A stretch of 64,000 nucleotides of DNA from an uncultured Leptospiraceae bacterium (GCA_964627815.1 CAZVKE010000008.1:182116-246115), one strand, 5' to 3'; shown: positions 1 through 13,878, numbered from the stretch's first letter. Numbers and translations: made by a program. The notes: generated by a model from the sequence alone, not told the origin.

Positions 1-476
1 TCGGTACGGCCCATCCCTTCGGTGAAAAGGGTGTCTCCGGTGAAAACGTGTCCCGGCGTGTAGAGGCAGATGCCTCCTTCAGTGTGGCCGGGAGTGTGGA
101 TCACCCTGAGAGATATGTCGCCGATCGCTATTACATCGCCGTCGGTCAATGTCGTGAGCGGCAGCGGGGATCCCTTTCCTCCCACAACACGGGAAAGCAG
201 CCTGTTTGATATGCTGTTGAGTTTTTTTACTTCGGTTTCATATATGAGAAGCGCCGCCCCGGTCTTCTGTATCACAAAGTCGTTGCCCGACGTGTGATCG
301 AAATGGCCGTGGGTGTTGATGACTTTGGTGATGGAAAGGCCGTGGCGTTCGACTTCTTCGAAAATGAGATCGAAGTCGCCCGCAGGATCAATGAGCGCGC
401 CTTCGCGCGATTTCTCATCTCCGATAAGATAGCAGAATACCGCCATCGATGTCACAAGAATCTGTTCCAGTATCAT
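1..476 (-). CDS. MBL-fold metallo-hydrolase (glyoxalase II-like), C-terminus cut by window edge
   Basis: Not in the ORF track because it is open at the window edge. Minus-strand translation from ATG at 476 reads MILEQILVTSMAVFCYLIGDEKSREGALIDPAGD...VINTHGHFDHTSGND...HTPGHTEGGICLY..GDTLF. The HxHxDH metal-binding motif is present. Confidence 0.8.
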   Translation of the reverse strand, partial: MILEQILVTSMAVFCYLIGDEKSREGALIDPAGDFDLIFEEVERHGLSITKVINTHGHFDHTSGNDFVIQKTGAALLIYETEVKKLNSISNRLLSRVVGGKGSPLPLTTLTDGDVIAIGDISLRVIHTPGHTEGGICLYTPGHVFTGDTLFTEGMGRT

Positions 477-640
477 TGTTTATTCCCAATAACACAGACA
501 CCGCTTTTTTCTGCAGAGCGATGTATGGAATGGCACTCACGCTCCCGGTCGGGAACATTTCTTTATGAGTATAGTGTAGAAGTATGATAGCATGGGATGC
601 GGGATGCGTCAAATCATTTTACAGGATATGTTTCGTACGG

Positions 641-1741
641 CTACAGGCCCTGCAGATACGAAATTATTTCCCTGATGCTCTTGATCATCTCGGCGGCCCC
701 GAGCTTGATGGCCTCACGCGGCATTCCGAATACGACCGAAGAAGACTCATCCTGCGCGACCGTTATCGCGCCCGCCTCTCTCATTTCGAGCAGTCCCGCT
801 GCCCCGTCGGCGCCCATGCCGGTCAGAATGACGCCGATCGATTTTTTTCCGGCAATCTGCGCCACGGAGCGGAACAGGACGTCCACCGACGGACGGTGCC
901 GGTTGACGGGCAGGCCGTCGTTTACCTCGACGTAATATCCCCGACTGTCATACCTTACAAGCAGGTGCCGGTTCCCGGGAGCGATCAGGGCCGATCCCTT
1001 ATTGACGCGATCGCCGTTTTCGGCTTCCTTGACGTAGAGCTTTGAGATCGAATTGACGCGGTTTGCGAACGCTTCGGTGAATTTTTCCGGCATGTGCTGG
1101 ACTATTACGATCCCCGGGAGCGTGTCCGGCAGCGCGCTTAAAATTTCGGCGATAGCTTCGGTACCGCCCGTTGACGCGCCGATCGCGATGAGCGTATCGC
1201 TGGCTTCGGTTCGTATCGTCTTGGCTGGTTTTGCCGGTAAGATAACATCAGCGGAATATTTCTGCTCGACCTTGATCCCGCCGGCGGGAAGCGGCGCTTT
1301 CGCCACGGGTTCCGGGCGCGGGGTTATTCTCCTGCGGACATTGGACGAACCCGAGGCGATCACTTTTTCTATCAGGTCCTCGGAGAACTTTTCCCATGAC
1401 TGGGCGTTGTCGGATTTCGGTTTGAGCACGAAATCGACGGCCCCGCGCTGGAGCGCCTCTATCGTTTTGCTCGCTCCCTCGTCGGTCAGCGCGCTCACCA
1501 TGATTACAGGCATGGGATGGGAAATCATCAGTTTGGAAAGGAAGGTCAGGCCGTCCATGCGCGGCATTTCGATATCAAGGGTAAGAACATCAGGCTCGAG
1601 CTTCTGTATTTTTTGCGCGGCGATATACGGATCGATCGCGGTGCCCACAACTTCTATTTTTTTTGAGCGCGAGAGCGCTTCGGTGAGCGTTTTCCGCATC
1701 ACCGCGGAATCGTCGACGATCAATACTTTTATCGTATCCAT
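641..1741 (-). CDS. cheB: Chemotaxis response regulator protein-glutamate methylesterase CheB
   Basis: 366 aa. N-terminal receiver (VLIVDDSAVMRK, LDIEMPRMDG) plus methylesterase domain (IGASTGG, HRPSVD, GMGADG). Start overlaps the cheD stop (ATGA). Confidence 0.95.
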   Translation of the reverse strand: MDTIKVLIVDDSAVMRKTLTEALSRSKKIEVVGTAIDPYIAAQKIQKLEPDVLTLDIEMPRMDGLTFLSKLMISHPMPVIMVSALTDEGASKTIEALQRGAVDFVLKPKSDNAQSWEKFSEDLIEKVIASGSSNVRRRITPRPEPVAKAPLPAGGIKVEQKYSADVILPAKPAKTIRTEASDTLIAIGASTGGTEAIAEILSALPDTLPGIVIVQHMPEKFTEAFANRVNSISKLYVKEAENGDRVNKGSALIAPGNRHLLVRYDSRGYYVEVNDGLPVNRHRPSVDVLFRSVAQIAGKKSIGVILTGMGADGAAGLLEMREAGAITVAQDESSSVVFGMPREAIKLGAAEMIKSIREIISYLQGL

Positions 1742-2298
1742 CAGCGTTCCTCGTTCCTCCAGGCGAAATGTCTTATTCTGATTTTCCTGTCGCGCAACAG
1801 TTCAATTTTCCGGTTTTTCTTGAGAAACACTCTCCCCGTCGAAGCATCCATCAGCACCTTTCTCGAAAAGTGCCCGTATACATCGGATTCAACGATCGGT
1901 ATGTCCTCAAGTTCCAGCAACACGCGGGCAAGCCGCACATTCTCTTCCTGAATTGTAAGCTTTCTGCCGGTGTGGTCAAGAACAATTCCGCCCCCGAAAA
2001 TCTTTGCGATGAGGTTCTTCTTTTCGGCTCCTGAATCCAGCATGGAATCGACCAGGCGGCGGATCGCGTATATTCCATACTTCGAACCGAGCCCGATGTA
2101 AATGTTTTCTGATACTATCTTGCCGGGAAGCATGAAGTGGTTCATTCCCGAAATCCTTCCCACGGGATCATGAAGACAGACGGCGACGCATGAACCGAGA
2201 AGGGTACCGATCATTTCGTCACGGGGAGTGACGTAGAGCTCACCCGCGTTTATGATTTTCAGCGGTTTCCCGTATTTCATGCTGGTATGCGAATACAT
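1741..2298 (-). CDS. cheD: Chemoreceptor glutamine deamidase CheD (paralog 1)
   Basis: 185 aa with the CheD Cys/His signature LLGSCVAVCL...GMNHFMLPG. ATGA overlaps with both neighbours. Confidence 0.9.
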   Translation of the reverse strand: MYSHTSMKYGKPLKIINAGELYVTPRDEMIGTLLGSCVAVCLHDPVGRISGMNHFMLPGKIVSENIYIGLGSKYGIYAIRRLVDSMLDSGAEKKNLIAKIFGGGIVLDHTGRKLTIQEENVRLARVLLELEDIPIVESDVYGHFSRKVLMDASTGRVFLKKNRKIELLRDRKIRIRHFAWRNEER

Positions 2299-3137
2299 CA
2301 GGTGACCTTCCCGTATACCGACCTGCCCCTGAAATAAAACAGGTTGGACACACTCGTAAGGGTCTCGGAATGCCCGATAAAGAGGTAACCGTCGTTGTTC
2401 AGGTATTTGTAAAACTGTTTAAAGAGCTTGATCTGCGATTCGCGGTCAAAATATATCACGACATTCCTGCAGAAAATGATGTCAAACGTGTTTTTCATCG
2501 GGAAGGAGTCGTCAAGAAGGTTCAGTCTCCGGAAATGGATCAACTGCTTTACCTCGTCCTTCATCCGGTAATAGCCGGCGTTTGCGCCGACTCCCTTGAG
2601 CGCATAGCGGCGAAGCACGTCGCGGTCGATGATCTTCACGACTTCTTCTTTATAAACGCCCTCGGTCGCCGAATCGAGAACCCTGGTGTCGATGTCGGTG
2701 GCGAGGATCTTGATATCGGGGAGCTTCCGGTCCTTGTAATACTCAAGCAGGGTGATGGCGATCGTATACGGCTCCTCTCCGGTAGAGCACCCCGCGCTCC
2801 AGATTCGAAGCGAGGTTTTGCGCTCGCGCTCGTAGCGGGGAAGCGCCTCGTTGTTCAGGTAATCGAAATGACCCGATTCCCTGAAAAAATCGGTCTTGTT
2901 GGTGGTGATGCAGTTGATGAGGTTGATCTTTTCCTCAGTAAAATTCTCCTGAAGGTAGTTATAGTAATCGTGAAAGTCACGCAGGCCGAGCTCTCTCATC
3001 CGGCGCATGAGCCGGGACTGTACCAGCGCCTTTTTCAACGGGGAAAGATTGATCCCGCTCTCCCGGTATATTATTTCGCGGAAAAGATCGAAATCGGCGT
3101 CATTGAGCTCGGCGATAAGGTTTGGATAATTGGCCAT
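2298..3137 (-). CDS. cheR: Chemotaxis protein methyltransferase CheR
   Basis: 279 aa. N-terminal helical CheR domain plus SAM-methyltransferase motifs LRIWSAGCSTGEEPYTIA and DIIFCRNVVIYFD. Confidence 0.95.
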   Translation of the reverse strand: MANYPNLIAELNDADFDLFREIIYRESGINLSPLKKALVQSRLMRRMRELGLRDFHDYYNYLQENFTEEKINLINCITTNKTDFFRESGHFDYLNNEALPRYERERKTSLRIWSAGCSTGEEPYTIAITLLEYYKDRKLPDIKILATDIDTRVLDSATEGVYKEEVVKIIDRDVLRRYALKGVGANAGYYRMKDEVKQLIHFRRLNLLDDSFPMKNTFDIIFCRNVVIYFDRESQIKLFKQFYKYLNNDGYLFIGHSETLTSVSNLFYFRGRSVYGKVT

Positions 3138-3142
3138 GTCTG

Positions 3143-3733
3143 TTACTCGAAAACTATGACTTTTCCGTATTTATCCTTTTCACGGAACGCGCGATTGATA
3201 TATTCCCTCTCCATCCTTGTGAACTCGGAAGATTCACTGTTGTTTTCCAGAATTTTCCGGAACGCCCTTCCGCTGGCGGGCTGAAAATAAACTTTTCTTC
3301 GAAGGACCCCACCCAGGTCTTCGCTGATGATGGGGATTTTCTCCATCTTGAAATACTCGTCGATAAAGGTTAAGATACTGTTTTTAACTCCATCCGACCA
3401 TGAATTTACGTACGGCACGTTCGCAACGCCGAATATTTTTGCGTTCAGGTTTTTTCTGTCCCCCCCGAGCTTGACGATCTCGCCCATGAGGTATTCCATA
3501 TTGGTGATGCCGTGCGTGCCGATCTCGTCGCGGTATATCCCCTCCGTTCCCATGGCGCCGGGTATGATGAAATGCCCCATTCCCCCGATCCGCCGCGTGG
3601 AATCATACAGGCAGATCACCATACAGGAACTGCTCACGGTGCCCAGAATACAATCCTCCCTTGTCGCGAAATATTCGCCGGGGTAGAGGACGTAGAGTGG
3701 CTTCCCGAACTCGCTTTTGTTGCTCTTGATCAT
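3143..3733 (-). CDS. cheD: Chemoreceptor glutamine deamidase CheD (paralog 2, C-terminally extended)
   Basis: 196 aa with VSSSCMVICL...GMGHFIIPG, so the same Cys/His positions as paralog 1. It has an extra ~35-aa charged tail. Confidence 0.85.
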   Translation of the reverse strand: MIKSNKSEFGKPLYVLYPGEYFATREDCILGTVSSSCMVICLYDSTRRIGGMGHFIIPGAMGTEGIYRDEIGTHGITNMEYLMGEIVKLGGDRKNLNAKIFGVANVPYVNSWSDGVKNSILTFIDEYFKMEKIPIISEDLGGVLRRKVYFQPASGRAFRKILENNSESSEFTRMEREYINRAFREKDKYGKVIVFE

Positions 3734-3760
3734 CTCGTTCTGATGTCCACGACATCGATA

Positions 3761-4288
3761 TCAGCCTTTAACGGCCATGTTGTCATCACGGGTCCTTTCG
3801 ATGCGCTCGAGGTCCTCGGAGCTGAGGATCCTGTCAACATCGAGAACGATGATCAGCTGGTCTCCTTTCTTCGCGACTCCCTTGATGTAATCGGTGTCAA
3901 TGTTCGAGCTGAAGTGCGGCGTCTCCTGGATGCTCGACAGGGGAAGCCCCACGACATCGGAAACCGCGTCCACGATCATGCCGACGAGCGAGCCCTTGAC
4001 CTCGATAATGAGTATCACGGTGAATTTTGTGTAGTCCTGCTCCTGCATCTCGAGCTTCAGGCGCATATCGACGACCGGGACCACCGAACCGCGCAGGTTG
4101 ATGACGCCTTTCATGAAATGCATGCTGTTCGGCATGTGGGTGATCTGAGTCATGCCGATGATCTCCTGCACCTTTAGGACCTCGACACCATACACTTCAT
4201 TGCTGATGTTGAAGGTCACGTACTGCTCCATCTGTTCGATTTCAGCCTCGTTCTGCTTACGCTTCAGGCTCTCCTTGATGTTTTCCAT
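3761..4288 (-). CDS. cheW: Chemotaxis coupling protein CheW
   Basis: 175 aa single CheW-like domain (YVTFNISNEVYGVEVLKVQEI, INLRGSVVPVVDMR, LIIVLDVDRIL). Confidence 0.9.
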   Translation of the reverse strand: MENIKESLKRKQNEAEIEQMEQYVTFNISNEVYGVEVLKVQEIIGMTQITHMPNSMHFMKGVINLRGSVVPVVDMRLKLEMQEQDYTKFTVILIIEVKGSLVGMIVDAVSDVVGLPLSSIQETPHFSSNIDTDYIKGVAKKGDQLIIVLDVDRILSSEDLERIERTRDDNMAVKG

Positions 4289-4299
4289 AACTTACTCCT

Positions 4300-4671
4300 T
4301 TATCGCACAAGTTTTTTTACTACGTTAACAAGCTGTTCCGGCTGGAACGGCTTGACGAGCCATCCTGACGCCCCCGCGTCCTTTCCTTCCTTGATTTTCG
4401 TCTCTTCAGATTCCGTGGTCAGCATGATGACGGGCGTAAACCGGTCGTCTTTTCTGAATTCGCGCACGAAACTTATTCCGTCCATTTCAGGCATGTTTAC
4501 GTCAACGACACAGGCGGCAAGATCGTTTCCCTGTTTTTTAAGGGTCTTAACTTTTTCAAGCGCATCTTTTCCGTTTTCCGCCTGCGATATGGGATACCCT
4601 ATTCCCTTGAGGGCGTATTCCACGCTCATACGGATCGTTGCGGAATCATCGATAACAAGAATGTGTTTCAT
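4300..4671 (-). CDS. cheY: Single-domain response regulator CheY
   Basis: 123 aa receiver (ILVIDDSATIRM, VVDVNMPEMDG, LVKPF) inside the che operon. Confidence 0.9.
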   Translation of the reverse strand: MKHILVIDDSATIRMSVEYALKGIGYPISQAENGKDALEKVKTLKKQGNDLAACVVDVNMPEMDGISFVREFRKDDRFTPVIMLTTESEETKIKEGKDAGASGWLVKPFQPEQLVNVVKKLVR

Positions 4672-4685
4672 TATTAATCCTCCCT

Positions 4686-4940
4686 TTATTTAACCAATCC
4701 AGCTATCACGAGCTGCTGCCGCAATTCTGGTGATACTTTCTTGAGTTTGATTATTTTGTTTTCGTTTCTGGCCGTCTTTTGCGCGGCGATCAGCACCTGC
4801 GCGAGAGCGAGATCGACCCGCCCGACCCTTGAGAAATCCAGAGTGATCTCCTGGTTCGTTTCAAGGAGATTCAGAAGAGTGCCGTGAAATTCACGGATCG
4901 TCTTGATCCCCGTGTCCTCTGTCAGTTCTAACAGTGCCAT
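4686..4940 (-). CDS. Short STAS-domain protein (anti-sigma-antagonist fold) without the canonical DSSG phospho-serine
   Basis: 84 aa. The LDFSRVGRVDLALAQVLIAAQK segment aligns to the lDls.v.fiDSSG region of SpoIIAA-like STAS proteins, but Leu/Ala replace Ser-Ser-Gly. Confidence 0.6.
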   Translation of the reverse strand: MALLELTEDTGIKTIREFHGTLLNLLETNQEITLDFSRVGRVDLALAQVLIAAQKTARNENKIIKLKKVSPELRQQLVIAGLVK

Positions 4941-4949
4941 AATCCCTCC

Positions 4950-6731
4950 CTAAAAAATGTATACACGTTCTTCGGGGAGCTGGTGCTGGTATTCCGAAAT
5001 CATGGATATGAGCATTCTGGTGCGGTACTCCCCGTTTTTTTCGCACTCGCTCAGATACTGCCGCATCATGTCCGCGTCGCGGTCGTGTTCCCTGGCCCCG
5101 CCCTGATGCGTTTTTTGGGCTATTCGGGAAACTTTGTCAAACAGCGACTTCAGCGTGTTTTTCAGATCGGTGATGGCCTCTATCTCCCCCGACTCGTTTT
5201 CGATGAAGCCGAGCATTCTGGTACAGGTGCCTCCCACTTCCTCTGAAATGTCCTGGTAATATTTTTTCGATTCATTGAGCTTTACCGATATTTTGCGCAT
5301 TGCCTGGATGCAGTTGTTAAGGGTGCGCTCCTGAACAAGATAGTTTTCCTGATATTCGCGGATAGATGATTCCATATACTGCGCGACCATCGCGTTGGTC
5401 GAAAGTGAACGCTCGATGATTTTCTTCATCTGGGTGGGAAGGTCGCGCACGCCGGTAAGGGCGCCGGTGAGCGTCTTTTTCAGGCTCGAGTGGCGCGCCA
5501 GCTCTATCTTGGTCAGCATGTTGATGATCTCGAAGCGTTTCGCTATCTGTACGAGCTCGTTGAAGAAGATCGAAAATTTGCCGAGTACGTCCAGTATCCT
5601 GCTTGAAAGCTCGAAAAGCTCACGCTTCCCCTCGATGATTTTCTGGATATAGCTGATATACTCGTTTTTCATGTTTTCGAGCTTTTCATATACCGTATCC
5701 AGCTTCTCGCCCTCATAGTACTGTTTGCCGTCACCGTGGGTTCCGTAGAAGCGGCTGATGAACCTGTTGAGAATGTCCTTGATCCGATCGTTGCACTCCG
5801 TGTTTCCCGTAATGAGGTGTTCGATATGGTGCTCGAGCCCCTGTATCTTGCTCATGCTCATCCCGTAGAGCAGTTCGGCGATACGCCCTGCCATGCCCGG
5901 ATCGCCGCTCCTGTCGAAAAGCCGGTCGTTGCCGTTTTCTGCTTCCTCAAGCGCGAATATAACTTTTTCAAGGTCCTGCCTGACAAGGTCCTCGGTCTGG
6001 AGCCATTCCATCACGTTGGTGATCGAACTCTCCACTTCCTCTGAATAGTTCATGATTTCCGCGACGTTCGCCGACAGCCTTCCCAGGTCGGTCAGTATTT
6101 CTCCGAATACCAGGCTGCTTTTCACCTTCATCTGGGTGAGGTAGTTTTCATTGGTGATGTCGATCTTCTCCCTTATCGATGAGAATTCATCGTAGGAAGC
6201 TTCCAGGGTCTGAAGGAGGGAGATGAATTCAGTCGAGATTTTTCCGGCCTTGTCCGAAAGCACCGTCATCTCAGAGGATATCTGCGCCAGCGTTTCCCCT
6301 TCGGTCCCGGCCTTGGTGGATATCAGCATCGTGTTTACCGAATAAATGTCGATTGCCTCTATCATCGTCAGTATTTCATCCACGCTCTTGCGTATTTCCA
6401 GCGTGCGCTGGATCGACTCGGCGATACTGTTGTTGATCCGGCTGTCCCCCTGCATGATCGCGACGGCCTCATCGATGGCGCCGTTCATTTCGTCCCTGCT
6501 TGGAATCACCACATCGCCCGCAAACGACTCGGAGGCCGTTTCCGGGTTGAGCGGATAGAAATAGTTGATATAGGGAGAGATGATCGTCCGGAACTCGCCG
6601 ATCTTCCTTGAGGTCGTTAACATGAAATCGCCCAGCTCCCCGAAAAGGGAGGAAATGTTGTCCTTCAGGACGAGGAGCCTTCCTCTTTCCTCGGCGACCG
6701 TTCCGATATCTGTAACCGTGTCTGTTGACAT
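4950..6731 (-). CDS. Hypothetical 593-aa soluble coiled-coil protein (X593) with two degenerate MCP-signalling-hairpin-like segments
   Basis: Long ORF tightly packed between cheA and the STAS gene. I saw no TM segment. aa 117-168 and aa 391-436 resemble the MCP tip (IAxQTNLLALNAAIEAARAG..GFAVVAxEVRxLA) only loosely, for example IAKRFEIINMLTKIELARHS...TGVRDLPTQ. Confidence 0.5.
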   Translation of the reverse strand: MSTDTVTDIGTVAEERGRLLVLKDNISSLFGELGDFMLTTSRKIGEFRTIISPYINYFYPLNPETASESFAGDVVIPSRDEMNGAIDEAVAIMQGDSRINNSIAESIQRTLEIRKSVDEILTMIEAIDIYSVNTMLISTKAGTEGETLAQISSEMTVLSDKAGKISTEFISLLQTLEASYDEFSSIREKIDITNENYLTQMKVKSSLVFGEILTDLGRLSANVAEIMNYSEEVESSITNVMEWLQTEDLVRQDLEKVIFALEEAENGNDRLFDRSGDPGMAGRIAELLYGMSMSKIQGLEHHIEHLITGNTECNDRIKDILNRFISRFYGTHGDGKQYYEGEKLDTVYEKLENMKNEYISYIQKIIEGKRELFELSSRILDVLGKFSIFFNELVQIAKRFEIINMLTKIELARHSSLKKTLTGALTGVRDLPTQMKKIIERSLSTNAMVAQYMESSIREYQENYLVQERTLNNCIQAMRKISVKLNESKKYYQDISEEVGGTCTRMLGFIENESGEIEAITDLKNTLKSLFDKVSRIAQKTHQGGAREHDRDADMMRQYLSECEKNGEYRTRMLISMISEYQHQLPEERVYIF

Positions 6732-6748
6732 AGTGCCTGCCGGGCCTC

Positions 6749-8857
6749 TTACCTTCTGATCTCGCCTATCAACCCGTGAATGTCGATGATGAGGGCGATG
6801 CTCCCATCGCCGAGTATCGCGGCGCCGGAGATCGACCTGCTTTCAGTGATGCCCTTTTCAAGGCTTTTGATCACGGTCTGGTACTGCCCCAGGAGATCGT
6901 CGACCATGATCGCGATTTTTTCTCCCGACGATTCCACGATGACCAGCAGCGCTTCCCATGGATTGATGTGGTCGGCCTTGATCCCGAAATGCGTGTACAT
7001 CCGGATCAGGGGCACGTAATCTTCGCGGACCATCACCATCTCCCGCTTCCCTTCGATCGTTTTGACGGAATCCTGTTTGGCCTGTATCGTTTCCATGATC
7101 GAGAGGAGCGGAATGATATACCGGTTGGCGCCGATACGCACGAGCATCCCGTCGATTATGGCGAGCGTCAGCGGCAGCTTGATGCGGAAGGTCGTTCCGC
7201 GCCCTTCGAGGGTCTCTATTTCAACGGTACCCCTGAGCGACTCGATGTTGGTCTTGACCACATCCATACCCACGCCGCGCCCGGAAAGGTCTCCCACGGC
7301 CGTGGCTGTTGAGAAACCGGGGAGGAAGATGAGCGAGAGAAGCTTGCTGTCGTGTATCTCCTCATCCGGGCTGATAAGCTCTCTCTTGATCGCCTTCTCG
7401 AGGATCTTCTTCCTGTCGATGCCTCGCCCGTCGTCAGTCACTTCGATGAAGACGCTTCCTTCCTGGTGGTATGCCCTGAGTTTGACTGTCCCGTAAGGAT
7501 ATTTTCCCGCGGCGACGCGCTCCTCGGGAGATTCGATGGCGTGGTCAATGGCGTTGCGGATCATATGTTTCAACGGATCGCTGATCTTTTCGATGACGGT
7601 CTTGTCAAGCTCGGTTTCCTTTCCTTCCATCTCGAGCCGTATGTCTTTTCCCACGTTGTGGGCCGCGTCGCGCACAAAGCGCATGAACTGCTCGAACGTC
7701 GGGCCGATCGGTATCATCCGTATCGACATGATCTGTTCCTGGAACTCGCGCGTCGTGCGGTCCAGCGAATGGAGCGCGTTTTTCATACGGAATGAGATCT
7801 CGTCGTCCTCGATGTCGTCGGCTATACGCGCGATCGACGACTGGCCGATGACAATCTCGCCGAGGAGGTTCATCAGGTTGTCCATCTTTGTCGTGTCGAC
7901 ACGCACCGTGCCGGTATCCACCTTCTTCCTGATCCGCTCCTGCTCGTTGAGGGCGTTGTTGATATCGCCGGGCGTGGCAAAGCCTTTTTCGACGACGATG
8001 TCGCCGAGCTTGCGGTTTTCCTTCTCCTGCGCTTGTATCGCCTCGGCCAGCTCGTTTTCCGAAAGAATGCCCTTGTGGAGAAGAATCTCGCCGATCTTCT
8101 TCTCGGTGACATGCTTCTCGTTCTCGCCGGTAGCGTACTCGGCGGTAATGTCCTCTATTTCGATGTCATTGTCTTCCATGACGAAAAGAAAGGTTTCCTG
8201 AATATCCTTCAGGGGATGCGGGGATTTCATGACCAGCTTCCATCCGAGGTAGCATTTCTCGGGGTCCATCTCGCGGAATTCGGGAAGCTCGTTGCGGTCG
8301 GCGTGTTTGTAGATGACCTCTCCCATCGAGAAAAGGTCTTCCATGATGAGGAGGGGATCAATGCCGTGCTCGAAGGTTGTATCCTTAAACTGGGCCCGTA
8401 TCCGGTAATAACGGGTCCCTTCCTGTTTTGCGGTGCCCTCTTCATCCTCGTCAGCCGGTTTTTTCTCGCCCGGCGAAGTGTAGGATTCTATCCTTTCAAT
8501 AAGCAGCTTTTTTACGTCTTCAAGTTTCGAGCTTTCCCCTGTTTCGATATCAACACCGAACAGATCAAGCTTCATCCAGTCCAGGCTCTGAAGCAGGAGG
8601 TCGATTATGCCCTGGTCAACAGAGAGCTTTTCCGACCGGATCATGTCCATAAGGTTTTCGAGCTTATGATTGAATTCATATAACTCATCAAAACCCGCAA
8701 TGCCGGAACTCCCTTTCAGGGTATGGACATAGCGGAATATGTCATTGATGAGCTCTGCGCTGAAATTTTCCTCAAGACTGACGAGTTCCGACTCGAGCTT
8801 GTCAAGTATCTCTTTTGCTTCTTCCAGAAAAACTTCCCTGATCCCTGTATCGCTCAT
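6749..8857 (-). CDS. cheA: Chemotaxis histidine kinase CheA with an embedded MshEN/T2SSE_N-like module
   Basis: 702 aa. Hpt (FRYVHTLKGSSG), dimerisation, HATPase (HMIRNAIDHAIE, DDGRGID, GRGVGMDVV) and a C-terminal CheW-like domain. aa 254-306 match the two-motif MshEN consensus. Confidence 0.95.
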   Translation of the reverse strand: MSDTGIREVFLEEAKEILDKLESELVSLEENFSAELINDIFRYVHTLKGSSGIAGFDELYEFNHKLENLMDMIRSEKLSVDQGIIDLLLQSLDWMKLDLFGVDIETGESSKLEDVKKLLIERIESYTSPGEKKPADEDEEGTAKQEGTRYYRIRAQFKDTTFEHGIDPLLIMEDLFSMGEVIYKHADRNELPEFREMDPEKCYLGWKLVMKSPHPLKDIQETFLFVMEDNDIEIEDITAEYATGENEKHVTEKKIGEILLHKGILSENELAEAIQAQEKENRKLGDIVVEKGFATPGDINNALNEQERIRKKVDTGTVRVDTTKMDNLMNLLGEIVIGQSSIARIADDIEDDEISFRMKNALHSLDRTTREFQEQIMSIRMIPIGPTFEQFMRFVRDAAHNVGKDIRLEMEGKETELDKTVIEKISDPLKHMIRNAIDHAIESPEERVAAGKYPYGTVKLRAYHQEGSVFIEVTDDGRGIDRKKILEKAIKRELISPDEEIHDSKLLSLIFLPGFSTATAVGDLSGRGVGMDVVKTNIESLRGTVEIETLEGRGTTFRIKLPLTLAIIDGMLVRIGANRYIIPLLSIMETIQAKQDSVKTIEGKREMVMVREDYVPLIRMYTHFGIKADHINPWEALLVIVESSGEKIAIMVDDLLGQYQTVIKSLEKGITESRSISGAAILGDGSIALIIDIHGLIGEIRR

Positions 8858-8905
8858 GGCACACTTCCCTCTGATCTGTAATAGGTGTCACAAAAAAAAC
8901 TGTTC

Positions 8906-10930
8906 TTAAAACTCAACAAATCCCTGGTCGGACATCGTTTTTGCGATGTCTTTAGGGTCTTTCTTTTCTGTTTCGTCGGGCTTTTTATCGCCGCCTGCGG
9001 CCTCAGGTTTTTTCTCATCCTGCTTCTGCGGCGTCGTATGCTCCGCGGCGCGCAGGTGTATTTCATGCCTGTTCGTTCCCATGTCGTCGATGATCGTCCG
9101 GCTTATTTTGAATTTCTCGACCATCGAAAGCATCTCCTGCGCCTGGTTCGCCATCTCTTCGCTTGCCGAGGCGGTCTCTTCCACGAGGGCGGAGTTCTGC
9201 TGTGTCATATTGTCCAGTTCCATTACGGCGATATTGATCTGGTCGAGGCCCTGTTTCTGCTCCTCGCTCGCCGCCGATATCTCCGAAATCAGGGTACCGA
9301 CCCTGTTCACCGACTCGATGATCTCCCTGAGCGCCTCGCCGCTCTGGTTGACAAGCTGTGTGCCGTTCTCGATTTTTTCCACTGAAGACTGGATGAGCAC
9401 GCTGATCTCCTTCGCGGCGGTCCCTGCCCGCTGTGCGAGGTTGCGGACTTCTCCCGCGACGACGGCGAAGCCGCGCCCCTGTTCTCCCGCCCGGGCCGCC
9501 TCGACGGCGGCGTTCAACGCCAGCAGATTAGTCTGGAACGCTATTTCATTGATGACCGATATGATTTCCTCGATCTTGCGGCTCGATTCGTTGATCTCAT
9601 TTATTGAATTTACCGAATCCACGACAATCTGCCCTCCCTGCGAGGCGAGGTGCGACGTGGTCGTCGACATTTTATTGGCTTCCATCGCGTTATCGGCGTT
9701 CTGCCTTATCGTGGCGGTGGCCTCCTCTATGGTCGAGGCGATCTCCTCGAGAGAGGATGCCTGCTCAGAGGTGCGCTGTGAGAGGTTTTCATTGCCGCTC
9801 GCGATTTCCTGGACCGCCTGTGAAAGGTTCTGGGCGCTCAGTACGAGTTCTGAAATGAGTTTCTCGAACTGGTTCATGGATTCGTTCACCGCTTTGGCCA
9901 TATCGCCGATTTCGTCATCGGTGATCGTTCCCGTGTAGCGGCCCCGAAGGTCGCCCTGCGCCATGTCGTTGATGACGTTTCTGCATTCATCGAGCGGCTT
10001 GAGCCGTTTGGCGATTACGTAATAGATCGCGATTGCGGTTAAAATCAGACCGAGAAGGCCGAAAATGACCATCGTCGCCGCCATGGCCCGCGCGCTCTCG
10101 TTGATGTCAGACACGAACATGGTGCTGGCGGTTATGAAGCCGAACCGCGTGTTGCGGGTGAGGGACAGGATCTTTCCTTTACCCTGCCATTCGTACCTGA
10201 TCACCGTTCCGTCCGCGGAGGCCATCGCCCGCTTTCCCCACTCCTCGTCTTTCATATTCAGCTTAAGAATCATATCCTTGCTGGGATGGGCGAATACCAG
10301 GCCGTTTATTTCAGCAACGAACGGATATCCGGTGGCCCCGATTTTAACGCCTTCGATCATTGCCTGTGAAAAAGTACTAACGTCAACGACGAGCCCCAGT
10401 ATCCCGGTAATGGTGTTTCCGTTTTTGATCGGTGCTGCGACAGCTATTATCGGAAGATTGGTGACCATCGATTTCTGGGGGGAGGATATAGCGGTTTTGC
10501 CTTCGAGCGCGTTTTTGATAATTTCATGGTATGCCGGATTATTGCTCACCCTGGTCCCCACCGCTTTCGGATTCGTCGCGGCGATGATATCGCAGTTGTT
10601 GTCGGCCGAGCCGATAAATATGTACTGATAGATACCGTGACGGTCCTGGAAGTCTTTCAGCATGCGTATGGCCTCGCCGAGATTTCCTTTTGATACCGAG
10701 TCGGTGCTTGCAAGAAACTCGGCGGTGTTTTCCTGCTGAATGTAAAAAAGCTCAAGCTGCTGGGCGATGTCTTTATTGAAGTTCTGCAGCTGGTTCAGGT
10801 AGGCGTTTTCCACAGCGTCATACGATGCGTTGTACGATATCGCGACAAGAATGATCGTAAGGACCGCAACGATTCCGACAACAATTCCGGCCAGTATCGC
10901 CTTCAGGCTTCTGAACATTCTGATATTCAT
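8906..10930 (-). CDS. mcp: Methyl-accepting chemotaxis protein (N-terminal TM, Cache-like periplasmic domain, HAMP, MCP signalling domain)
   Basis: 674 aa. Canonical tip IAFQTNLLALNAAVEAARAGEQGRGFAVVAGEVRNLAQR. Ends in a charged linker plus GFVEF. Confidence 0.9.
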   Translation of the reverse strand: MNIRMFRSLKAILAGIVVGIVAVLTIILVAISYNASYDAVENAYLNQLQNFNKDIAQQLELFYIQQENTAEFLASTDSVSKGNLGEAIRMLKDFQDRHGIYQYIFIGSADNNCDIIAATNPKAVGTRVSNNPAYHEIIKNALEGKTAISSPQKSMVTNLPIIAVAAPIKNGNTITGILGLVVDVSTFSQAMIEGVKIGATGYPFVAEINGLVFAHPSKDMILKLNMKDEEWGKRAMASADGTVIRYEWQGKGKILSLTRNTRFGFITASTMFVSDINESARAMAATMVIFGLLGLILTAIAIYYVIAKRLKPLDECRNVINDMAQGDLRGRYTGTITDDEIGDMAKAVNESMNQFEKLISELVLSAQNLSQAVQEIASGNENLSQRTSEQASSLEEIASTIEEATATIRQNADNAMEANKMSTTTSHLASQGGQIVVDSVNSINEINESSRKIEEIISVINEIAFQTNLLALNAAVEAARAGEQGRGFAVVAGEVRNLAQRAGTAAKEISVLIQSSVEKIENGTQLVNQSGEALREIIESVNRVGTLISEISAASEEQKQGLDQINIAVMELDNMTQQNSALVEETASASEEMANQAQEMLSMVEKFKISRTIIDDMGTNRHEIHLRAAEHTTPQKQDEKKPEAAGGDKKPDETEKKDPKDIAKTMSDQGFVEF

Positions 10931-10955
10931 ATCATTCTCCTTATATCCCGCATTC

Positions 10956-12971
10956 CTAAAATTCGACGAACCCGTCGTCTTTGAGGGTCCTGGCGGTTCC
11001 CCCCTTTTGCGGTTTTACGGGGCTTTTCCGCGCAATCCTTGATGCCGCCGGTGAAGATTCGGCTGATCGTGCAGCCTTGATGTGAACCTCGCGGTGCTTG
11101 GTTGAATAGGAGGCCGTTTCGACAGTCTCGCGTACCTTGAAGCGTTCCATCATCGAGAGCAGTTCCTGGGCCTGGTTCGCCATCTCTTCGCTTGCGGACG
11201 CCGTTTCCTCGACGAGCGCGGCATTCTGCTGGGTCATGTTGTCAAGCTCCGAAACGGCAACGGTGATCTGGTCCATACCCTGTTTCTGTTCCTGGCTCGC
11301 GGCCGAAATTTCCGAAATCAGCGCGCCCACCTGATTGACCGCATCGATAATCTTGCGCAGCGCCTGCCCGCTTTCGTTGACGAGCCGGGTCCCGTTTTCG
11401 ACCTTCCCGATAGATGTCTTGATAAGATCGGCGATCTCTTTAGCCGCGGTGCCGGAGCGTTGCGCGAGATTGCGCACCTCGCCGGCAACGACCGCGAACC
11501 CTCTTCCATGATCGCCCGCACGCGCGGCCTCGACCGCGGCGTTAAGCGCGAGAAGGTTGGTCTGAAACGAGATTTCATTAATGACGGATATAATATCGCC
11601 GATTTTCTTGCTTGTGCTGTTTATCTCATTTATCGCCACCACCGATTCGTCGATGATCTTTCCGCCGCTTTCGGCGAGCTGCGAGGTCCTGCCGGACATT
11701 TCATTGGCTTCCACAGAGTTTTCCGCGTTCTGGTTGATGGTGGAGCTTGACTCTTCGAGGGTCGACGCGATCTCTTCCAGCGAGGATGCCTGTTCGGTCG
11801 TCCGCTGTGACAGGTTCTGATTGCCGCTCGAAATTTCGCTTACCGCCTGTGCGAGGTTCTGTGCGCTCACGACCAGCTCCGCGATGAGCTTTTCGAACTG
11901 GTCAAGTGAGTTGTTCACCGCATGCGAGATATCCCCGATCTCATCGCGGGTCTGACGGCCTTCGTAGCGGCGCGTGAAATCGCCGCGCGCCATCTGGCCC
12001 ATTATGTCCCGGCACACTTCAAGCGGTTTTAGCCTGCTTGCGATCACGAAGTAGATAAGCAGTCCCGCCGCGATCACGCCCAGTAAGGTAAAGAGAATCA
12101 TCTGCAGCGCCATAACTCTCGCCTGGCTGTTGATATCCGACATGAACATCGTCGAGCCGACGATAAAATGGAACCGGTCGCTCACGATAAAGGTCTGGAT
12201 CTTCTCCAGCCCCTGGAACTCGTACTTCAGCACGCTTCCCGATGGCATTGAGAGGAGTTTTCTGCCCCAGTCGAATGTCTTGATATCCATCTTCAGGATA
12301 AGATCTTCCTGCGGGTGTGCGAAGGTGAGCCCGTCGGCCCTCATGATGTAGGCGTAGCCGGTATTTCCTATTTTCACGTTTTTGATAAGGTTCTGTGAAA
12401 ACTTGCTCAGCTCTACCGCGAGTCCGACAATCCCGACGATCCGGTTATTGTCCATGATCGGCGCCGAAACGAGCACAACCGGGAGGCCGGTAATCGGGGA
12501 CTTCTGGGCCTGGCTCACCCAGGATTTTCCCTCCAGCGCCTTAGTGATGTTCTCGTCGTACCCGATCCCCCCCCATCGCGTTCCGGCGCCCTTGCGTGAG
12601 CCGGACACGATTACCTGCGGGTTCTGTTCGGCGCTTGAAAGGAATACGTTCTCATATGTTCCGTACTTATCGAAGAAATTATTCAGTGTCGGCGCGGCCA
12701 TCCCGAAATTTTTAGTGATTGCGGCAGTTACGACCGCGGGTGTGGCGGCCAGAAATTCCGCATGCCGCATTTCTGAATCGAAAAATCCGGTCAACTGCCG
12801 GTCGAGATCTTTGTTTATGTTGGTAAGCTGGTTGACAAATGCGCTTTCAACGGATCTGCGTGCGGCGTTATATGATATGAGCACCAGAATTATTGAAAGC
12901 AGAATGATAATGGCAACAACAATGGACGATAACACAATTTTGAGACTGCGAAACTTTTCTTTAATGTTCAT
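10956..12971 (-). CDS. mcp: Methyl-accepting chemotaxis protein, tandem paralog of the preceding MCP
   Basis: 671 aa with the same architecture and tip (ISFQTNLLALNAAVEAARAGDHGRGFAVVAGEVRNLAQR). Also ends in GFVEF. Confidence 0.9.
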   Translation of the reverse strand: MNIKEKFRSLKIVLSSIVVAIIILLSIILVLISYNAARRSVESAFVNQLTNINKDLDRQLTGFFDSEMRHAEFLAATPAVVTAAITKNFGMAAPTLNNFFDKYGTYENVFLSSAEQNPQVIVSGSRKGAGTRWGGIGYDENITKALEGKSWVSQAQKSPITGLPVVLVSAPIMDNNRIVGIVGLAVELSKFSQNLIKNVKIGNTGYAYIMRADGLTFAHPQEDLILKMDIKTFDWGRKLLSMPSGSVLKYEFQGLEKIQTFIVSDRFHFIVGSTMFMSDINSQARVMALQMILFTLLGVIAAGLLIYFVIASRLKPLEVCRDIMGQMARGDFTRRYEGRQTRDEIGDISHAVNNSLDQFEKLIAELVVSAQNLAQAVSEISSGNQNLSQRTTEQASSLEEIASTLEESSSTINQNAENSVEANEMSGRTSQLAESGGKIIDESVVAINEINSTSKKIGDIISVINEISFQTNLLALNAAVEAARAGDHGRGFAVVAGEVRNLAQRSGTAAKEIADLIKTSIGKVENGTRLVNESGQALRKIIDAVNQVGALISEISAASQEQKQGMDQITVAVSELDNMTQQNAALVEETASASEEMANQAQELLSMMERFKVRETVETASYSTKHREVHIKAARSAESSPAASRIARKSPVKPQKGGTARTLKDDGFVEF

Positions 12972-13049
12972 GTCCTTCCCCCGAAAACGATCTCATGTAG
13001 ATTCCTCCTCAATTTGTTGTCGCCATTACCATTCATCAGGTTATGATGA

Positions 13050-13078
13050 TATATATAAAAAAAACAAATGGTGGTCAA
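13050..13078 (-). promoter_or_regulatory. Candidate sigma70-type promoter of the mcp-che operon
   Basis: Minus strand reads TTGACC (13078..13073), a 17-nt spacer, then TATATA (13055..13050), about 80 nt upstream of the mcp ATG. Confidence 0.3.
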
Positions 13079-13169
13079 TACAGGACAGTGTTATTTTGGT
13101 ATAATAGGAACACCTTAAATAAAGTAGGGGAATCCCTTACTCGTTATGTCGCATGGATCGGGTGGTGGA

Positions 13170-13865
13170 TTATTTCATGTTTGTGGTCTGGATCCAGTGT
13201 ACCGCGACCTGAATAAGCTCTGCTGAATCCTGGAGGTTCATCTTCTGTTTTATATTCTGGCGGTGGGTCTCGATGGTCTTGATGCTGAGGTTGAGCTGCT
13301 TGGCGATCCTTCTGGTGCTGAAGCCGCGCCCTATCAGGCGGAAGACCTCGAGCTCTCTGTTGGTGAGCCCTTCGACAAGCGTGTAGTTGCTGTCCTCGGA
13401 TTTCATCGCATCCCCGCGCAACAGGCGCTGCAACAGGCGCGATTTTATCCGTTCGCTGACGAAAATTTCGCCCTTCATCACCTGGTGGATCGCCTTGATG
13501 AGCGTATCGGTTGCTTCCTGTTTCATCACGTATCCCATGGAGCCGGATCTTATCGCCCGCTCGGCATACAGGTTTTCATCGTGCATCGAGAGTACGAGGA
13601 GGGTGATATCGGGACGGCGCGAATGGATTGCCTTGATCAGGTCCAGACCGCTGTCCTCCTCGAGAGAGAGGTCCACCAGCACCAGCTTCGGCTCGGTTTC
13701 CTTGATGACTTCCCATCCCTCCGAGGAGTTTTTTGCCTCGCCGCACACGATCATATCCTCCTGCATGTTGATGAGCTGGGCGATCCCGTGGCGTACGATA
13801 GGATGGTCGTCTACGATGACGATCCTTATCTTTTTTTCGGTTTTCACGCCGTTTCGGTCTGCCAT
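13170..13865 (-). CDS. NarL/LuxR-family response regulator
   Basis: 231 aa. Receiver (IVIVDDHPIVRHG, VLVDLSLEEDSG) plus LuxR HTH (LTNRELEVFRLIGRGFSTRRIAKQLNLSIKTIETHRQNI). Confidence 0.9.
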   Translation of the reverse strand: MADRNGVKTEKKIRIVIVDDHPIVRHGIAQLINMQEDMIVCGEAKNSSEGWEVIKETEPKLVLVDLSLEEDSGLDLIKAIHSRRPDITLLVLSMHDENLYAERAIRSGSMGYVMKQEATDTLIKAIHQVMKGEIFVSERIKSRLLQRLLRGDAMKSEDSNYTLVEGLTNRELEVFRLIGRGFSTRRIAKQLNLSIKTIETHRQNIKQKMNLQDSAELIQVAVHWIQTTNMK

Positions 13866-13878
13866 TTAAGCGCTCCTG

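Follow-up and report, generated by a model that had tools for sequence, protein, structure and literature searches.

Among the closest known relatives of the system studied here are the ancestral F7 chemosensory clusters of gammaproteobacteria, exemplified by V. cholerae cluster III and P. aeruginosa Che2. In its stage 1 form, such a cluster runs antagonist-cheY-cheA-cheW-36H mcp-cheR-cheD-cheB (Ortega et al. 2020, PMC7184735), and the oldest (stage 1/2) clusters also hold an unclassifiable McpA-like receptor. The function of ancestral F7 is described as "still unknown," whereas late-stage F7 systems govern flagella (PMC7184735). A second point of reference is the cheA1 operon of Borrelia. Here, we describe an operon of 11 genes (positions 641 to 12971) in a 64,000-nucleotide stretch of DNA from an uncultured Leptospiraceae bacterium (GCA_964627815.1, CAZVKE010000008.1:182116-246115), which we call the window. 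We consider it quite probable that the locus encodes a full chemosensory pathway of ancestral F7 type, in a spirochete form.

All 11 open reading frames (ORFs) lie on the minus strand, and Pfam and NCBIfam name 10 of them, the exception being a 593-residue protein designated X593. In operon order, the genes are mcp1 (10956 to 12971), mcp2 (8906 to 10930), cheA (6749 to 8857), X593 (4950 to 6731), a gene for a single-domain STAS protein (4686 to 4940), cheY (4300 to 4671), cheW (3761 to 4288), cheD1 (3143 to 3733), cheR (2298 to 3137), cheD2 (1741 to 2298), and cheB (641 to 1741), separated by 25, 48, 17, 9, 14, 11, 27, 5, -1, and -1 nt. An earlier model-made reading of the sequence (the original prediction) had given the same gene order, a shared orientation, gaps of 50 nt or less, and an absence of flagellar and phosphatase genes. 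The domain calls and the measured gaps (-1 to 48 nt) agree with this, and a Pfam scan of the window ORFs found no flagellar gene and no CheC, CheX, or CheZ in the operon. Its statement that several genes overlap as ATGA was wrong; the only overlaps are cheR/cheD2 and cheD2/cheB, each a 1-nt TGATG, and none is 4 nt long. CheY, a response regulator with a single domain, is of the CheY2 type of Borrelia, and CheB combines a receiver (REC) with a methylesterase domain. CheD1 is the diverged and CheD2 the canonical copy, but both retain the residues Thr, Cys, and His known from Thermotoga CheD. In another genome (G011), cheD copies likewise occupy both of these positions, including one of the cheD1 type.

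The two methyl-accepting chemotaxis proteins (MCPs) are tandem paralogues with 57% identity, both with the order dCache-HAMP-MCPsignal; MCP1 is a transmembrane protein with two hydrophobic segments. Both align with E. coli Tar and Tap without gaps from HAMP through the whole signaling domain and are therefore of heptad class 36H. Determining this class had been proposed as a check in the original prediction. In the same alignment, a receptor encoded elsewhere in the genome (contig C5) lacks 7 residues in each arm (7+7) and is 34H, and the receptors of a locus resembling the alternative-cellular-function (ACF) class have 14 extra residues in each arm (14+14) and are 40H. Class 36H is associated with F7, and class 34H is associated with F8 (PMC11253619, PMC7184735). 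In both receptors, a long linker leads to a terminal GFVEF (10956 to 10973 and 8906 to 8923), located where E. coli receptors have the CheR/CheB tether NWETF; the C5 receptor ends in EFERY.

The operon matches the ancestral F7 content in STAS, cheY, cheA, cheW, cheR, cheD, and cheB. As in that system, its 36H receptors are encoded in the cluster, a STAS (anti-sigma-antagonist) gene stands next to cheY-cheA, cheW, cheR, cheD, and cheB are accompanied by no che phosphatase, and there is a second, receptor-like gene that cannot be assigned to a heptad class (PMC7184735). There are also differences. The ancestral 36H receptor is the cytoplasmic PAS-HAMP protein Aer2, whereas the window has membrane dCache sensors; the window has two cheD genes and lacks both the serine phosphatase and the second antagonist; its unclassifiable member is soluble and BB0569-like; and its CheA bears an MshEN_N module (PMC7184735). 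The composition, called noncanonical in the original prediction, is thus in large part that of the oldest F7 clusters as listed in PMC7184735 (STAS by cheY and cheA, cheD, and 36H receptors). The same description is not supported by the direct position of cheA upstream of the X593 orthologue in 20 of 29 loci or by an earlier catalogue entry for a CheA with MshEN (PMC5013675). The original prediction had held that a well-studied flagellar class whose members routinely carry such accessory genes in known roles would speak against it; we found a named flagellar class whose old members routinely hold the extras, but not known roles for them.

We called the operon F7-type because of its 36H receptors, its cluster content, the CheA tree, the F7/F2 record of Brachyspira, and the solved protein that its CheA best matches by sequence. 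In the tree (15 rows, with several long branches), the window CheA forms a pair with a non-F2 CheA, that of a Brachyspira genome (support, 88/95). The C5 CheA clusters with Borrelia CheA1, a Treponemataceae kinase, and three kinases of Spirochaeta africana (83/85; inner node, 98/97), and the long-P3 F2 CheAs form a clade of their own with a CheA-CheX fusion as its sister. The Brachyspira genome encodes only two CheAs, one with the long F2-type P3, and Brachyspirae have been reported as F7/F2 (PMC7666581). The best PDB match of the window CheA is E. coli CheA (6s1k, 392.5 bits), followed by Thermotoga P3-P5 (316 to 317 bits). Three points weigh against the assignment. E. coli CheA, itself F7, falls in an unresolved polytomy of the tree; the F7 label of Brachyspira stems from elimination and one paper (PMC7666581); and the class follows from receptor class and cluster content as read from sequence, not from the class-specific hidden Markov models of MiST/Wuichet-Zhulin. 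The ACF class was considered and ruled out for the operon, as its CheA has no REC domain, its receptors are 36H, and its output is a plain CheY.

The 702-residue CheA has the order P1, P2-like, MshEN_N, P3, P4, P5, with Pfam matches to Hpt, H-kinase_dim, HATPase_c, and CheW. Residues 254 to 306 (7940 to 8098) match NF053729 ("c-di-GMP motif, MshE-related") at 56.7 bits in one scan and 61.5 bits in a second (cutoff, 38) and comprise two 24-residue motifs, KIGEILLHKGILSENELAEAIQAQ and KLGDIVVEKGFATPGDINNALNEQ; residues 252 to 314 match PilF of Thermus in the PDB (6f8l_G; E = 7.5e-13). These matches bear out the kinase with a putative second-messenger receptor of the original prediction, as a candidate module for cyclic di-GMP (c-di-GMP). 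An AlphaFold2 model of CheA (mean pLDDT, 74.2) contains an alpha/beta domain of four strands plus helices at residues 149 to 241 (8135 to 8413) and four helices at 252 to 315 that lead into P3; the module therefore lies between P2 and P3 and does not replace P2. The P2-like call rests on this model and a weak Pfam P2 match to residues 149 to 241 (E = 0.03), because a phmmer search of the PDB with residues 145 to 245 gave nothing at E ≤ 10.

Inspection of 18 orthologous cheA stretches revealed both MshEN_N motifs in every one, 12 times through a pattern and 6 times by eye, and the kinase of the Treponemataceae cluster matches NF053729. Three non-F2 CheAs of Spirochaeta africana (G210; loci L058, L059, and L060) also have an MshEN-type motif directly preceding P3 (44, 53.8, and 28.3 bits; two of the three above the cutoff), and the C5 CheA has half a motif (19 bits). 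The order HPT, CheY-binding, MshEN_N, P3, P4, P5 was catalogued in 2016 (Wang et al., PMC5013675), and in that work an Aeromonas veronii MshEN_N-CheA-P3 construct bound c-di-GMP with a dissociation constant of 2.6 µM and tolerated the change R30K. The A. veronii module, like that of the window, lies directly before P3, at about residues 260 to 340. The catalogue in PMC5013675 lists the architecture in Actinobacteria and Proteobacteria only, whereas the host of the window is a spirochete, and a 2023 survey of CheA architectures contains no occurrence of MshE, T2SSE, or c-di-GMP. By analogy with A. veronii, we infer that the window CheA binds c-di-GMP, and its genome has 31 GGDEF matches. Against this, both window motifs begin with K and not R, and neither the Brachyspira CheA (G041), the nearest from outside the order, nor Borrelia CheA1 has an MshEN match at E ≤ 1. 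We also considered whether the long P2-P3 linker of Borrelia CheA1 hides such a module and rejected the idea, as nothing was found at E ≤ 1 in the Borrelia genome G220. Three very small ORFs of the window's own genome (G000; open frames of 72, 82, and 96 residues; C5:325530-325688, C5:147500-147655, and C7:219509-219661) consist of little beyond the MshEN_N motif pair and score above the NF053729 cutoff.

The 84-residue STAS protein (STAS_2; E = 8e-17) adjoins the X593 orthologue in 19 of 29 loci and is the counterpart of Borrelia BB0566. When it was folded together with full-length CheA, the interface score ipSAE was 0.70, 0.68, and 0.70, compared with 0.00 in three controls; contacts agreed between runs at 98% at least, and the partner pLDDT was at least 81. 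Of 157 solved complexes, 116 attained the mark used, as did 2 of 215 mismatched pairs; this calibration is only rough because our own alignments were used. The predicted interface joins CheA residues 162 to 204 with STAS residues 12 to 26, 42 to 56, and 75 to 81. It contains F162, G165, P168, L169, P192, C202, and Y203, which together with I166 are invariant in 16 CheAs; on the other side, all 23 STAS sequences compared share D43 and Q48, and invariant residues of both proteins fall within the interface. The STAS protein is thus predicted to dock on the P2-like domain of CheA (8135 to 8413), with the reservation that the score expresses the confidence of the model and that its calibration is approximate. 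We know of no solved STAS-P2 complex.

CheS of Sinorhizobium and Agrobacterium resembles the window protein in being small, in consisting of a STAS domain only, and in being encoded within a che cluster (PMC12654446). Sinorhizobium CheS binds CheA and alters its dealings with CheY (PMC12654446); for the window STAS, binding is predicted at the CheY-docking region of CheA. CheS systems differ in having two CheYs and belonging to another chemosensory class, whereas the window operon has one CheY (PMC12654446). A role as a SpoIIAA-type anti-sigma-factor antagonist was also considered and set aside; the window STAS has Ala (DLAL) at the presumed phosphoserine position, where most orthologues have DLSV, and the operon has no HATPase_c_2 anti-sigma gene. 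SpoIIAA-type antagonists have a phosphorylatable Ser following the conserved Asp, presumably at the position held by this Ala, and a gene for a partner kinase or anti-sigma factor nearby. The contact region predicted here can be set beside that of CheS, which, in work attributed to Dogra et al. in 2012, reportedly binds CheA residues 163 to 256.

X593 has no hydrophobic or transmembrane segment, and its model is all-helical (pLDDT, 80.3; pTM, 0.59). A profile of its family (61 sequences) matched MCP cytoplasmic domains at 95.9% (E = 5.1e-9) in hhalign, the N-terminal half alone matched the receptor tip at 96.5% (E = 8.3e-10), and the two halves matched each other at 79.7%. Residues 114 to 267 (5931 to 6392) are the stretch homologous to the kinase-control tip of receptors. 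X593 is linked to Borrelia BB0569 through Treponemataceae and Spirochaeta intermediates. Compared directly with six Borrelia BB0569 sequences, the X593 profile gave a collinear alignment of 313 columns (E = 8.6e-5; probability, 60%). The first match in an Atlas search was a "BB0569 family" cluster (score, 0.98). The BB0569 model NF052273 exceeds its cutoff in 8 of 401 Spirochaetota genomes, all of one genus (including G220, Borrelia); below the cutoff, it matched 12 genomes at E ≤ 1e-10, and in 11 of these the ORF that it hit was also hit by the X593 profile. A word-indexed protein search returned 19 proteins, and the homologues with a named source were metagenome-assembled genomes of Spirochaetota. 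With a 17-sequence profile, 115 of the 401 genomes gave matches, the weakest being ordinary receptors, and in a large library the profile found 819 representatives at E ≤ 0.001, with lengths of 570 to 640 residues for most of the 150 listed. On sequence comparison, X593 is therefore best described as an MCP-derived protein, BB0569-like within a wider superfamily, and not as the unclassifiable coiled-coil protein of the original prediction; the likeness between X593 and BB0569 themselves is remote. BB0569 has been described as an atypical MCP (PMC10703414).

Several results weigh against this description. No curated Pfam or NCBIfam family matched X593 above its threshold; MCPsignal (PF00015) gave 13.2 bits, with a gathering score of 34.6, and NF052273 gave 17.2 bits (E = 0.0014), with a cutoff of 1,000 bits. 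In the organism's own genome, NF052273 had three weak matches, and X593 was not among them. The C-terminal "second tip" of the family matched MCPs at 1.4%, which is not significant, and a Foldseek search of the PDB with the model returned nothing at E ≤ 0.001, only generic long-helix proteins. These findings, together with a model that has one 132-residue helix over the putative tip and no hairpin, could fit a mere coiled-coil scaffold with a chance likeness to receptors that works outside the CheA/CheW assembly. We consider this very unlikely given the profile matches to the receptor tip, the published description of BB0569, the X593 pattern SLNA..KAG..G.AFS..ELK.LS, which parallels ALNAAVEAARAGE.GRGFAVVAGEVRNLA of the receptors, and the che gene that adjoins the X593 orthologue in 29 of 29 loci.

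Downstream of the orthologue, where the flank was long enough, the order is STAS-cheY-cheW-cheD. The set of STAS, CheA, X593-type protein, and CheY recurs in Borrelia, Treponemataceae, and Brachyspira and in the C5 cluster of the same genome. The window CheY is 45 to 53% identical to the CheYs of these STAS/X593-type clusters and 31% identical to that of the genome's F1-like system. The Borrelia operon (locus L047; cheW2-bb0566-cheA1-cheB2-bb0569-cheY2, where bb0566 is the STAS gene) shares with the window a STAS protein, a short-P3 CheA, a BB0569-type protein, a CheY2-type CheY, CheW, and CheB. It differs in having no mcp, cheR, or cheD, and its CheA1 groups with the sister lineage of the 34H C5 cluster rather than with the window CheA. 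CheB2 also shows no REC domain, unlike the window CheB; the CheB2 ORF at positions 7514 to 8665 of L047 (383 residues) had a methylesterase match and no receiver match at E ≤ 0.001. In the literature searched, a set that leaves subscription papers and bioRxiv supplements aside, we found no tie between BB0566 or BB0569 and the antagonist or the unclassified receptor of ancestral F7.

The 4.36-Mb genome (13 contigs) has four CheA-type genes. It is flagellated, with one FliM on contig C7 and che loci on contigs C4, C5, and C8. In locus L010, positions 9173 to 12388 encode a 1,071-residue fusion of CheA with a CheC/CheX phosphatase domain, and the genes for CheB and CheY come next; this is probably the flagellar F1-like system, and such a fusion has been reported for the F1 CheAs of Leptospirae (PMC10782961). 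The ACF-like locus on C4 (L011, 110000 to 129999) encodes two 40H Cache receptors, CheB, a long CheR, a CheA-REC, and a REC-adenylate/guanylate cyclase, the last of which is likely its output. The C5 cluster (L009, 163000 to 182999) encodes a ParA-like protein, a 1,141-residue poly-HAMP 34H receptor, CheR, CheB, CheW, CheY, STAS, CheA, and a 523-residue X593 paralogue. It is probably F8-like and the nearer counterpart of the Borrelia cheA1 operon.

Immediately upstream of the operon and on the same strand, the window encodes a 989-residue hybrid sensor kinase (13879 to 16848; REC, five PAS, HisKA_3, and HATPase_c domains) and a 231-residue NarL/LuxR-type response regulator (13170 to 13865; REC and GerE), the latter 198 nt from mcp1. 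These Pfam calls fit the pair named in the original prediction. Divergent housekeeping genes (GAPDH, SAM synthetase, and BamA) lie beyond. In four further genomes, G238, G263, G385, and G164 (loci L063, L061/L018, L015, and L016), a NarL-type homologue adjoins a related che cluster or an orthologue of X593, and a PAS kinase homologue lies upstream of the cluster in two of these (G238, L063; G263, L061). This recurrent neighborhood suggests a functional link with the che cluster.

The gap preceding mcp1 holds the promoter sequence that had been predicted, a sigma-70-like TTGACC-17 nt-TATATA at 13050 to 13078 on the minus strand. A consensus scan did not list this site, and its 14 promoter-like sites hardly exceed the 8.8 ± 3.1 found in shuffled sequences, so the site is merely plausible. 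The scan listed no terminator-like site on the minus strand in positions 1 to 14000. An 11-codon ORF (12960 to 12995, minus strand) begins with an ATG at 12995 behind a strong Shine-Dalgarno sequence (GAGGAGG) and ends just within the start of mcp1 in a different frame; it could couple or attenuate mcp1 translation. The stretch occurs in sludge metagenome runs, of which one may be the source of the sequence, and two runs marked "RNA?" are probably the same DNA data. In one metatranscriptome (X11), 10 short contigs aligned to cheW/cheY, cheA, mcp2, and mcp1; the eight listed were 148 to 383 nt long with 3 to 20 differing letters each. Assembled contigs of this kind reveal neither transcript, ends, nor strand, and such a library may contain DNA; the contigs are no proof of one transcript across the 11 genes, and the missing cover over the kinase and regulator genes carries no evidential weight.

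As a working model of the pathway, the two 36H membrane dCache receptors with their GFVEF tails would assemble with CheW and CheA. The soluble, receptor-derived X593 would retain a kinase-control tip and join or organize the same CheA/CheW assembly, and the 84-residue STAS protein would sit on the P2-like, CheY-docking domain of CheA and tune the choice or speed of its response regulator, as published for Sinorhizobium CheS. The location of X593 in the array and an effect of STAS on phosphotransfer are inferred. c-di-GMP may modulate the kinase through the four-helix MshEN_N module directly before the dimerization domain, the receptors would be adapted by CheR, CheB, and the two CheD deamidases, and the output would be phosphorylated CheY.

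What the phosphorylated CheY acts on is the point at which readings diverge; we lean toward a modulatory or nonmotor role and give direct flagellar control something short of an even chance. The operon is probably not the core flagellar pathway because an F1-like CheA-CheC/CheX system exists elsewhere in the genome, the CheY is of the CheY2 type, and ancestral F7 has no known function. Nevertheless, the operon could be the main flagellar chemotaxis pathway, in which dCache receptors signal through CheA to CheY acting on the flagellar switch while STAS, X593, and MshEN fine-tune the response. It belongs to an F class, with membrane receptors, a tether-like C-terminal tail, full adaptation, and a single-domain CheY, in a flagellated genome with one FliM. 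Late-stage F7 systems do control flagella, and BB0569 is polar and reported to be essential for Borrelia chemotaxis (PMC10703414, PMC5318424), so a motor-linked role has to be kept in view against our preference. Nevertheless, we think this unlikely on balance. The F1-like locus has the only phosphatase domain found among the four che loci, the window CheY is far closer in identity to CheY2-type proteins than to the F1-like CheY, no che locus adjoins the FliM locus, and Borrelia can do without CheA1, CheW2, and CheY2 for chemotaxis in vitro (PMC10703414).

The original prediction favored an alternative cellular function, with an output such as gene expression through the PAS kinase and NarL-type regulator or a c-di-GMP-dependent behavior. 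The homologues of that regulator and kinase beside related clusters are in keeping with it, as is the putative c-di-GMP module in CheA, and CheA1 of Borrelia influences virulence and the stability of RpoS, not chemotaxis (PMC10703414). Yet the hallmarks of the ACF class (CheA-REC and 40H receptors) are found not at this operon but at the C4 locus, together with a REC-cyclase; the output protein here is a plain CheY; and the upstream kinase/regulator pair may only regulate transcription of the operon. We regard this reading as possible rather than probable. The reading that we prefer remains that of an ancestral-F7-type pathway in a spirochete form.

Taken alone, the operon is unremarkable within its class. 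Ancestral F7 and the Borrelia CheA1 pathway are known systems whose mechanism and output are not known, and across some 30 related loci the STAS protein and the BB0569-type protein appear as conserved partners of one kind of CheA in spirochetes. In addition, the STAS protein has a specific, predicted docking site on CheA, next to which the putative c-di-GMP module lies. A bolder proposal, which we consider speculative and rather improbable, is that STAS and the BB0569-like receptor relic, joined in most lineages by the MshEN_N insert of CheA, form one conserved regulatory module shared by the F7-like and F8-like pathways of spirochetes, including Borrelia cheA1. STAS would then cap P2, c-di-GMP would act on the adjoining P3, and the duplicated, double-tip relic would organize a separate array that does not serve motor reversal. 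If this were true, the roles of BB0566, BB0569, and CheA1 and the function of ancestral F7 would share one mechanism.

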